DNA of 32,129 nucleotides. Source: Patescibacteria group bacterium. GTDB taxonomy: Bacteria; Patescibacteriota; Patescibacteriia; UBA11705; DATKZF01. The notes beneath the pieces are model-generated. The model worked only from the letters and a program-made list of their open reading frames with translations. It made no database searches and was not told where the DNA came from. The translations under genes and the position numbers were made by a program. Positions 6,981 to 7,556 of this stretch are shown one piece after another (the first letter of the stretch is position 1; every line of letters begins with the position of its first letter). The stretch lies in assembly GCA_049319825.1 (NCBI GenBank), contig JBMORT010000001.1, positions 1 to 32,129 on the forward strand. The letters are read 5' to 3'.

Positions 6981-7556
6981 TTAAGTTACGAGATGTACAA
7001 GATTTATGTACGAGATATTACAAGATATTAATTAATTTATTTATATTCGGGATCATTAACAACTCTGCGGATAACCACTCCTTTGGGAGAAAACAGTATA
7101 AGCAACGCTAATCTTAAATTTAACACATGTAAATATTCATTTGCTTGTTCAAAATGCCGTTTCGATAGCTTTCTGCCAACTTTTAATTCAACGAACATTA
7201 TATTTTCGATAAAAAAATCTACTCTTCGGATCACAAAATATCTATCATTGACTCTTATCCGAACTGGAAATTGATTACTGACTGAAATATTGTTTTCTAT
7301 CAATTTATCATACAAAACTTTTTCATAAAAATTCTCTCTATAGCCGTAGTCAAATTCATTAAAAACATCAAAACATATTCCTATTATTTTATCGCAAAGA
7401 TCCTTATAGTAAAACTCTGTCATATTTAATCTTAAATATCAAAAAATTCTTTTTTATCTGGTACTATCTTGTATTCGAATCTTGTACATCTTGTAACTTA
7501 AAATTCAATTTTTATCTGGTAATATCTTGTATTCGAATCTTGTACATCTCGTAACC
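6981..7556. mobile_element. Full inverted-repeat cassette carrying the GxxExxY gene
   Basis: 46-nt arms at 6981-7026 and 7456-7501 are inverted (8 mismatches by hand count); second right arm at 7514-7556. Confidence 0.75.
7037..7423 (-). CDS. GxxExxY family protein (PD-(D/E)XK nuclease-like)
   Basis: GYRENFY motif, then D...VELK and Q..EYL; 128 aa. Confidence 0.9.
   Translation of the reverse strand: MTEFYYKDLCDKIIGICFDVFNEFDYGYRENFYEKVLYDKLIENNISVSNQFPVRIRVNDRYFVIRRVDFFIENIMFVELKVGRKLSKRHFEQANEYLHVLNLRLALLILFSPKGVVIRRVVNDPEYK

Follow-up and report, generated by a model that had tools for sequence, protein, structure and literature searches.

The closest published anatomy to the elements described here is that of the ORF-bearing intervening sequences (IVSs) of 23S rRNA, where ORF stands for open reading frame. 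The IVS described in PMC4990558 is a 428-nt element in which terminal inverted repeats pair into a 28-bp stem, with an ORF for the four-helix-bundle protein S23p in the loop and, upstream of this ORF, three tandem GACAGAT heptamers whose number varies among strains. RNase III cuts this stem at the first repeat, and the same paper, in 2016, called the function, origin and mobility of rRNA intervening sequences still unclear (PMC4990558). Non-intron insertions in rRNA genes of the candidate phyla radiation (CPR) encode 23S_rRNA_IVP and GIY-YIG proteins (PMC11270868), and in Beggiatoaceae, Cyanobacteria and Bacteroidetes TAACTGA heptamers have been described that lie, directly repeated, immediately upstream of start codons (PMC4679880). 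Here we analyze a 32,129-nt stretch of DNA from a Patescibacteria group bacterium (GCA_049319825.1, contig JBMORT010000001.1, positions 1 to 32,129; the window), in which a small gene of the GxxExxY family, between pfkB and pduL, is enclosed by inverted arms built of short repeated units. This locus is one copy of a widespread kind of foldback cassette, with arm units of the form TACRAGAT here and TAC(A/G/T)AAT in most other GxxExxY loci. The phenomenon is genome-wide and spans several phyla, which goes beyond a preliminary description of the window made from its letters alone.

Inverted unit arrays around GxxExxY genes

The window is contig C1 of a 1.16 Mb genome in 10 contigs (G000). The arms around its GxxExxY gene pair in two registers, 6980-7047 with 7435-7502 (68 nt, 79% complementary) and 6985-7038 with 7502-7555 (54 nt, 81% complementary), and the right arm is itself a tandem duplicate whose copies R1 and R2 (Table 1) are 89% identical with a period of 58 nt. 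The arm unit is the octamer TACRAGAT (ATCTYGTA on the other strand), repeated at a spacing of 9-13 nt; the two-unit pattern ATCTYGTA-N5-ATCTYGTA has 4 matches in the window, compared with 0.00 in 100 shuffles. The RNA fold predicted for the transcribed strand of the whole cassette has the left arm paired with the outer right arm as its outermost stem (-132.7 kcal/mol, z -4.8). The preliminary description had reported inverted arms of 46 nt, built of such units of 9-10 nt and both ending in TTAA. The arms are real, and the account of them needs the duplication of the right arm and the wider spacing; TTAA is found at the outer ends of only the left arm and the inner right-arm copy, whereas the outer right-arm copy and the ORF-less copy described below end in GGTTAC...GTAACC.

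The same layout recurs in other phyla. A scan with one genome per species gave 80 loci encoding GxxExxY relatives, 77 of them usable, in Patescibacteria, Bacteroidota, Gammaproteobacteria, Nitrospinota, Acidobacteriota, Anaerolineales and a Cloacimonadota-like genome. We compared each left flank with the reverse complement of the right flank (the inverted-flank score) and obtained a median of 25 over the 77 loci, compared with 12.5 for direct comparison of the same flanks; a score of at least 20 was reached by 69/77 loci in the inverted and 5/77 in the direct comparison. Permuted flank pairs also reached 20 in 22% of trials because the arms of different loci share units, and we therefore used the direct-orientation control together with motif counts. 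Across phyla the arms are rows of 7-9 nt units that share a motif of fixed polarity. The 5-mers repeated in upstream arms include ACAAA at 29 loci (1 for its reverse complement), TACAA at 27 (0), CGAAT at 27 (1) and TACGA at 21 (1), and 51/69 GxxExxY loci have two or more matches to the pattern TAC[AGT]AA+T in the upstream arm, compared with 1/69 for the opposite orientation and none of 44 loci encoding four-helix-bundle proteins. The GxxExxY proteins of this set are about 31-42% identical to the query and their loci still share the arm motif. That the motif is conserved at such low protein identity points to a constraint on the sequence of the units and not merely on pairing.

Loci with four-helix-bundle genes, collected from metagenomes, have the same architecture with different units, such as GTAACTN: 44/67 reached an inverted-flank score of at least 20, compared with 7 in direct comparison and 1.8% of permuted pairs. 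When unit type was mapped onto the GxxExxY protein tree, using the 51 of 78 aligned rows with a clear unit label, it changed 9 times, compared with 19-25 times in the ten shuffles listed out of 300. Unit type follows the protein tree, a relation that the preliminary description had proposed to test across genomes, subject to the reservation about kinship given below.

The GxxExxY ORF of the window is intact and belongs by profile to TIGR04256 (E 6.5e-23, 81.3 bits, cut-off 35) and to PF13366, PDDEXK_3 (1.5e-22, 80.6 bits, cut-off 22), a family whose function is given as unknown in PMC3424549. Seven residues are invariant in 78 aligned sequences (G27, E30, D69, E79, K81, Q93 and Y97), comprising the GxxExxY motif and the D...ExK nuclease signature. 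An AlphaFold model (pLDDT, the predicted local distance difference test score, 94.5) had as its best solved Foldseek match Cas4 SSO0001 (4ic1; E 5e-6, template-modeling score about 0.6); other matches were AdnAB, lambda-type exonucleases, MGME1, tRNA splicing endonucleases and Hjc resolvases, with a weak match at rank 39 (E 0.03) to 3r3p, the catalytic domain of a PD-(D/E)XK homing endonuclease. By its residues and modeled fold the product is a member of the PD-(D/E)XK superfamily, with predicted nuclease activity. Searching the PDB by sequence yielded no significant match (T7 endonuclease I at E 0.81), a search for homologous proteins returned 4 proteins, and PADLOC gave only a weak REase_II match for the GxxExxY protein (E 0.0054, 13.9 bits) and none for the four-helix-bundle protein of the window.

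An ORF-less copy of the cassette lies in the same window and is the closest relative, genome-wide, of both cassette arms (left, 46/48 identical; right, 97% over 34 nt), in agreement with the empty copy of the preliminary description. Distinguishable left and right arm types are conserved in the full and ORF-less copies, and only the ORF is gone, with both arms and the leader retained. The arms form the outer stem of its predicted RNA fold (z -6.3), and its right arm contains a nested GC-rich hairpin at about 1371-1408. The spacer of this copy, previously taken as a homolog of the ORF leader, aligns to that leader with a global score of 11, compared with 0.5 on average for shuffles (11 is reached in 0.35% of 2000 shuffles); the similarity is modest but above chance, and its best-conserved part belongs to the repeated right-arm unit, not to the ORF. 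The solo arm reported earlier is also present. Its in-frame position within a GT4 glycosyltransferase gene had been missed, and in an alignment of orthologs the insertion is found in G000 and, in a shorter form, in the nearest relative, G001, and is absent from G002, G003, G004 and G039.

The genes next to the cassette are pduL/PTAC (6410-6976) and pfkB (7512-8516), on the minus strand like the GxxExxY gene itself. The leader shows no Shine-Dalgarno-like motif, and a TAAAT-like microhomology, read by eye, is found at both borders of the ORF. A terminator scan of 1200-7700 found no terminator-like site (GC-rich stem plus T run) at either hairpin, promoter and terminator scans gave chance-level numbers with no site in the arms, and Rfam 15 had 0 matches at gathering score in the whole window. 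Profile searches of the cassette ORF matched no transposase family, and neither a recognized transposase nor a target-site duplication, the marks of a miniature inverted-repeat transposable element (MITE) or of a transposon of the insertion sequence (IS) type, was seen at the cassette.

Table 1. Positions of the cassettes, arrays and hairpins in the window
Feature	Coordinates	Strand	Description
ORF-less copy	1265..1425		Left arm 1265-1311, spacer 28-34 nt, right arm 1340-1425
ORF-less hairpin	6260..6418		GATACTAAT/TTCGTAGAA-type units, directly downstream of pduL
Left arm	6980..7036		Left on the + strand, downstream arm in gene orientation; TACRAGAT units at 6987, 6996, 7009, 7019
GxxExxY protein gene	7037..7423	(-)	128 aa, PD-(D/E)XK fold, intact E30, D69, E79, K81
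Leader	7424..7441	(-)	Short, AT-rich, between inner right arm and start codon
Right arm, inner copy R1	7442..7497		Upstream arm in gene orientation; AAAAATTC..TTTTTATCTGGTA then ATCTTGTA units
Right arm, outer tandem copy R2	7500..7555		Outermost stem with left arm in predicted RNA fold
Second cassette	9998..10442	(-)	Four-helix-bundle ORF 10025..10396(-), inverted CATGTAN heptamer arrays 9998-10024 and 10399-10442, between frr and glyS
One-sided TACRAGAT-type array	14160..14226		In-frame 25-residue insertion in GT4 glycosyltransferase ORF 13281..14465(-)
ORF-less hairpin	14464..14618		TCTAAAT-type heptamer units, between GT4 gene and mreB
ORF-less hairpin	25706..25776		GATACTAAT/ATACGAAT-type units

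Hairpins across the genome and turnover at junctions

TACRAGAT octamers number 140 in G000, against a rough uniform-composition expectation of 71, and form 24 clusters of at least two units that we read as 21 loci. Two of these contain a GxxExxY ORF, 11 are ORF-less inverted pairs and 8 are one-sided arrays, which supplies the genome-wide count of full, empty and solo copies suggested in the preliminary description. Of the two loci with an ORF, the second (C2:56708-57188) has a GxxExxY copy that is interrupted by a single in-frame stop. At C6:27977-28305 the family's largest member consists of three tandem right-arm-type repeats of about 63 nt followed by an inverted partner, without an ORF.

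All six GxxExxY loci of G000 have inverted unit arrays, with units of TACAAGAT type twice and of ATTACAAAT, ATACGAAT, CCGAAT and GCGGACT type once each, the last at the copy in frame in lepA. The gene of the second cassette in the window (Table 1) encodes a four-helix-bundle protein of the family formerly named 23S rRNA intervening sequence protein (TIGR02436, 1.2e-25). G000 has about 10 such loci (12 matches), most of them with inverted arrays of their own units. Taking the cassette loci of both families, 11/16 reached an inverted-flank score of at least 18 and 9/16 a score of at least 20, compared with 2.5% and 1.3% of 1129 crudely called control genes. The control gene with the highest inverted-flank score (30) is a 630-residue ORF in the window (23796-25688) with GATACTAAT-type arrays on both sides (23693-23720 and 25706-25776).

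Hairpins of this kind are common between the genes of G000. Among 681 intergenic regions 50 nt or longer, 84 had a self-inverted score of at least 30 (about 2 when shuffled) and 173 a score of at least 25 (18 when shuffled). The hairpins nearly fill their spacers, starting a median of 7 nt from the upstream stop and ending 12 nt from the downstream ATG, and most flanking genes are co-directional. Inspected by eye, empty hairpins use unit families that include the ones found around cargo genes at other places in G000. One array at C8:54603-54949 has about 34 tandem copies of the 10-nt unit AATAACGCAA, the type that flanks a four-helix-bundle gene at C9:123678-124058. The 23S rRNA gene of G000 contains an ORF-bearing insertion near its 3' part; several different unit arrays crowd the spacer upstream of this gene (C6:6100-6420), and just after the 3' end of the gene lies a CATGGAT-unit hairpin (C6:10800-10900). 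The best score for pairing of the upstream and downstream 23S flanks through unit arrays was 17, which is not convincing.

We examined the focal junction in 41 genomes including G000, finding pduL in 29 and pfkB also in view at 25 of these loci. The occupants differ. G000 and G001 have a GxxExxY cassette with TACAAGAT-type arms; G025 has a 23S_rRNA_IVP (four-helix-bundle) ORF with AAATCAA-type arms; G002, G019, G023 and G015 have ORF-less unit hairpins, the one in G002 made of CCGAAT units like those around another GxxExxY copy of G000; three genomes have 139-163 nt of other sequence; and seven have just 22-58 nt with no hairpin. Gaps of 800-1300 nt between pfkB and pduL in eight further relatives contain an ordinary, unrelated HD-domain gene on the opposite strand and not a cassette. 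The ORF at the G001 junction is 54% identical to the junction ORF of G000, compared with 79% to the broken G000 copy at C2:56782, and the flanking proteins of the two genomes are 85% (PduL) and 71% (PfkB) identical, so the occupants of the junction are not simple orthologs. The comparison with relatives that the preliminary description had proposed thus yields junctions with 22-58 nt only, and also a cassette in the nearest relative, with a non-orthologous ORF.

The broken copy at C2:56782 occupies the yidD junction of G000. At the same junction G001 (L211:2950-3450) has a 95-residue GIY-YIG ORF (PF01541, 1.5e-15) enclosed by other inverted repeats, and the hairpin of G002 there is empty, such that three genera differ at this site. 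GIY-YIG is a third cargo family of these hairpin cassettes. GxxExxY genes are present in 28/41 genomes. TACRAGAT arrays are patchy, occurring in 3/3 genomes of the window's family and 5/16 of a second family (8/41 in total); they were not found in the other 33/41 genomes searched, and a backwards-read control gave 0-1 hits. The preliminary description had named arms confined to this locus, vertical conservation of the cassette and GxxExxY genes elsewhere without inverted arms as the contrary picture. We found dispersed arms, varying junction cargo and inverted arms at 69/77 GxxExxY loci elsewhere.

Contigs assembled from DNA reads gave three joints that skip the ORF. These were other ORF-less copies of the arm family, with other letters between the two sides, and not alleles of the junction; the one in run X1 is the window's own ORF-less copy. 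Two groundwater runs from another study (X2 and X3) contain contig pieces of 178-229 nt that are identical to the 5' part of the cassette within 7252-7480 at a depth of 2.5-3, and pieces of the flanking pfkB and pduL in which 7-13% of positions differ. This depth is too thin to tell the same strain from transfer.

GxxExxY domains also occur in frame within conserved genes. In G000 (C8:1065-3362; L215:166-2463) such a domain lies in LepA (EF4) just before the G3 motif (LNLIDTPGH), flanked by low-complexity linkers translated from inverted unit arrays. A GxxExxY domain of the same lineage is found at the same LepA site in G003 (L216:989-3001), a genome of another family, indicating that this insertion is old and has been kept. 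A closely related domain is in frame in a RecG-like helicase of G030 (L217:782-3307, minus strand), between DEQH and SATP. Conserved NTPase motifs as places of insertion in LepA and RecG resemble intein sites, and no intein domains were seen. In G036 (L218:1-1692, minus strand) a GxxExxY ORF has no stop codon and continues into a prepilin-like gene.

Proposed selfish cassettes and the rival explanations

We favor, with a probability of roughly 0.55, the reading that these loci are a family of selfish foldback cassettes with ORF-less derivatives, whose arms are recognition arrays specific to their cargo and whose mobilization would be driven by the nuclease. This reading suits the anatomy, the dispersed families with their ORF-less and one-sided members, the changing occupants of orthologous sites, the insertions in frame, and a polar unit motif that is specific to the cargo. 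The encoded protein would recognize the unit arrays, and the nuclease would cut at or near them. Break-induced recombination or gene conversion could then carry copies of ORFs and arms from one hairpin site to another, in a homing-like manner, and recombination between arm copies after cleavage would copy or remove the content of the loop. ORF-less hairpins might be landing pads or deletion derivatives. An ORF-less copy missing just the ORF fits such gain or loss at the level of the loop, and both ORF borders have the TAAAT-like microhomology. In transcripts the arms may pair into a stem that RNase III can cleave, as in the rRNA IVS, and G000 encodes RNase III; because this enzyme could cut the arm stem in transcripts, we propose that an insertion would do little harm.

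Several results weigh against this reading. No transposition, homing or cleavage was observed; no target-site duplication is visible at the outer ends of the full or empty copy; and contigs of DNA reads from four runs contained no allele without the cassette at the focal junction, where the nearest relative, too, carries a cassette, with a non-orthologous ORF. Stops or truncation have disrupted four of the six GxxExxY copies in G000. The same architecture surrounds the four-helix-bundle cargo, which is not a nuclease, and the design is therefore not specific to the GxxExxY nuclease; the published rRNA IVS, moreover, combines a four-helix-bundle ORF with ACAGAT-type units (PMC4990558), which blurs a strict rule of one unit type per cargo. 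The agreement of unit type with the protein tree could be produced by kinship alone. Arm mismatches that are compatible with G-U pairing on the sense strand were not in excess at GxxExxY loci (117 vs 108, p 0.59) and at four-helix-bundle loci numbered 94 vs 67 (p 0.04, sign test not significant), and with no sense-strand excess, selection on an RNA stem is not supported. Finally, cutting by RNase III would destroy the mRNAs that carry the in-frame LepA and RecG copies.

The hairpins may instead serve the host as RNA, in transcript processing, stability or the control of translation, as RNase III sites, protectors of mRNA ends or binding arrays for host factors in the spacers of a compact genome, with the ORFs as passengers in their loops. 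Their number among intergenic regions, their close fit between neighboring stop and start codons, the mostly co-directional flanking genes and the RNase III gene of G000 all suit this explanation, as do the RNase III cutting demonstrated for an rRNA IVS (PMC4990558) and the heptamer repeats known upstream of start codons (PMC4679880). We nevertheless consider it unlikely. A generic hairpin does not predict a cargo-specific, polar unit motif across phyla, arrays also lie in frame within coding regions, the arms lack the sense-strand G-U excess and no Rfam family matched in the window. At the pfkB-pduL junction the hairpin is dispensable, since seven relatives have only 22-58 nt there. A classical cut-or-copy transposon, the view put forward in the preliminary description, seems to us less probable again. 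On that view GxxExxY would act as transposase on the arms, its terminal inverted repeats, and would mobilize the ORF-less copies in trans as MITE-like, non-autonomous elements. Much of what prompted that view holds: the full and empty copies are most closely related to one another and keep distinct left and right arm types, the arrays form 21 dispersed loci in G000 and are patchy among genomes (8/41), cargo varies at the junction, an array has entered the GT4 gene in frame, and the catalytic residues are intact. Against it stand the lack of a visible target-site duplication, arms that differ between paralogs of one genome, the same layout around an unrelated, non-enzymatic four-helix-bundle protein, and a family that is not annotated as a transposase and whose function PMC3424549 gives as unknown. 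The empty copy lacks the ORF only and keeps arms and leader, which is better explained by insertion or deletion in the loop than by internal decay.

Growth in place is a further alternative, in which slippage and palindrome-templated repair build the arms, mutational bias makes the units alike, and old ORFs are lost between microhomologies without any mobility. Short-period tandem arrays are plentiful in G000, the heptamer number of the IVS varies between strains (PMC4990558), the TAAAT-like sequence borders the ORF on both sides, and the nearest relative has a cassette at the same junction. We regard this explanation as improbable, more so than the two before it, because it does not account for the presence, at two loci separated by 5.7 kb, of 48-nt arms with 96% identity and distinguishable left and right types, for the same unit families at non-orthologous sites in different genera, for non-orthologous ORFs at one junction, or for a polar unit motif conserved across phyla.

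Returning to selfish cassettes, a broader form of this reading is conceivable, and we offer it tentatively, as something we doubt more than we believe: GxxExxY proteins may be sequence- and structure-specific nucleases that recognize TACRAAT arrays and drive unrecognized prokaryotic foldback elements in intergenic spacers, rRNA helices and, in frame, genes, with four-helix-bundle and GIY-YIG cassettes as parallel lineages that have their own unit code. If true, this would account for where rRNA intervening sequences come from and how they move, and would provide a function for two very large families of unknown function. GxxExxY and four-helix-bundle genes are abundant, multi-copy and of unknown function, and are now tied by one hairpin architecture outside rRNA in several phyla. 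The polar, cargo-specific unit motif offers a concrete, testable candidate substrate for the proteins. The cassettes may also explain many of the odd intergenic microsatellite palindromes of small genomes, and may give rise to domain insertions, in frame, within such essential genes as LepA, RecG and a glycosyltransferase.

Comparison with known systems

In the literature we searched, we found no description of GxxExxY or four-helix-bundle genes with unit-array hairpins; supplementary tables, such as the Pfam table for the ORFs of rRNA inserts in PMC11270868, may hold relevant data. The TAACTGA repeats of PMC4679880 resemble the arrays described here in being intergenic tandem heptamers that end just before start codons and are patchy over phyla, but they are described as direct repeats, with one inverted case only, and the text examined makes no link to small ORFs. 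An integron attC cassette was considered and rejected, since two arms flank the ORF here, as opposed to a single 3' site. Homing endonuclease genes of introns and inteins are similar in that a small nuclease gene is variably present at conserved sites, and the in-frame copies adjoin conserved NTPase motifs (in LepA before G3, in RecG between DEQH and SATP). They differ in that no self-splicing intron or intein domains were seen, and introns and inteins contain nothing that corresponds to the arms.

RAYT genes are flanked by REPs. The REP/REPIN and RAYT system (PMC3116915, PMC2817692) is comparable in its short palindromic repeats dispersed between genes, with inverted doublets as hairpins, and in having many ORF-less copies per gene and a single- or few-copy gene bracketed by the same repeats. 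The flanked gene here, however, encodes a PD-(D/E)XK protein and not a Y1 (IS200/IS605-like) transposase, the arms are arrays of 7-10 nt units instead of one 20-40 nt palindrome, and a single genome combines many unit types with several cargo families. Eukaryotic Foldback and Galileo-type transposons (PMC3573991, PMC4079207) likewise have long, internally repetitive inverted repeats around a variable middle, coding or not, but they are much larger and use a P-element or other transposase, and we claim no relationship by descent.

The rRNA IVS remains the nearest relative in anatomy. The focal locus shares with it a long stem from terminal inverted repeats with a small ORF in the loop and heptamer-like units in the arms, corresponding to the tandem heptamers of varying number in the 5' arm of the IVS; the IVS also has short forms without an ORF and a sporadic distribution (PMC4990558). 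Its four-helix-bundle cargo is shared with the second cassette of the window and not with the focal ORF. The proteins of the CPR rRNA inserts are two of the three cargo families seen in intergenic hairpins (PMC11270868). The differences lie in place, copy number and cargo. The elements described here sit between protein-coding genes or in frame within them, the focal one between pfkB and pduL with the 23S gene on another contig, instead of in a 23S helix. Their arms are multi-copy, dispersed families. The focal cargo belongs to a PD-(D/E)XK nuclease family. RNase III cuts the IVS and may cut the cassettes, whose arm mismatches do not support selection on an RNA stem. What is new is an IVS-like foldback cassette outside rRNA, with a nuclease-family cargo and a conserved unit code.

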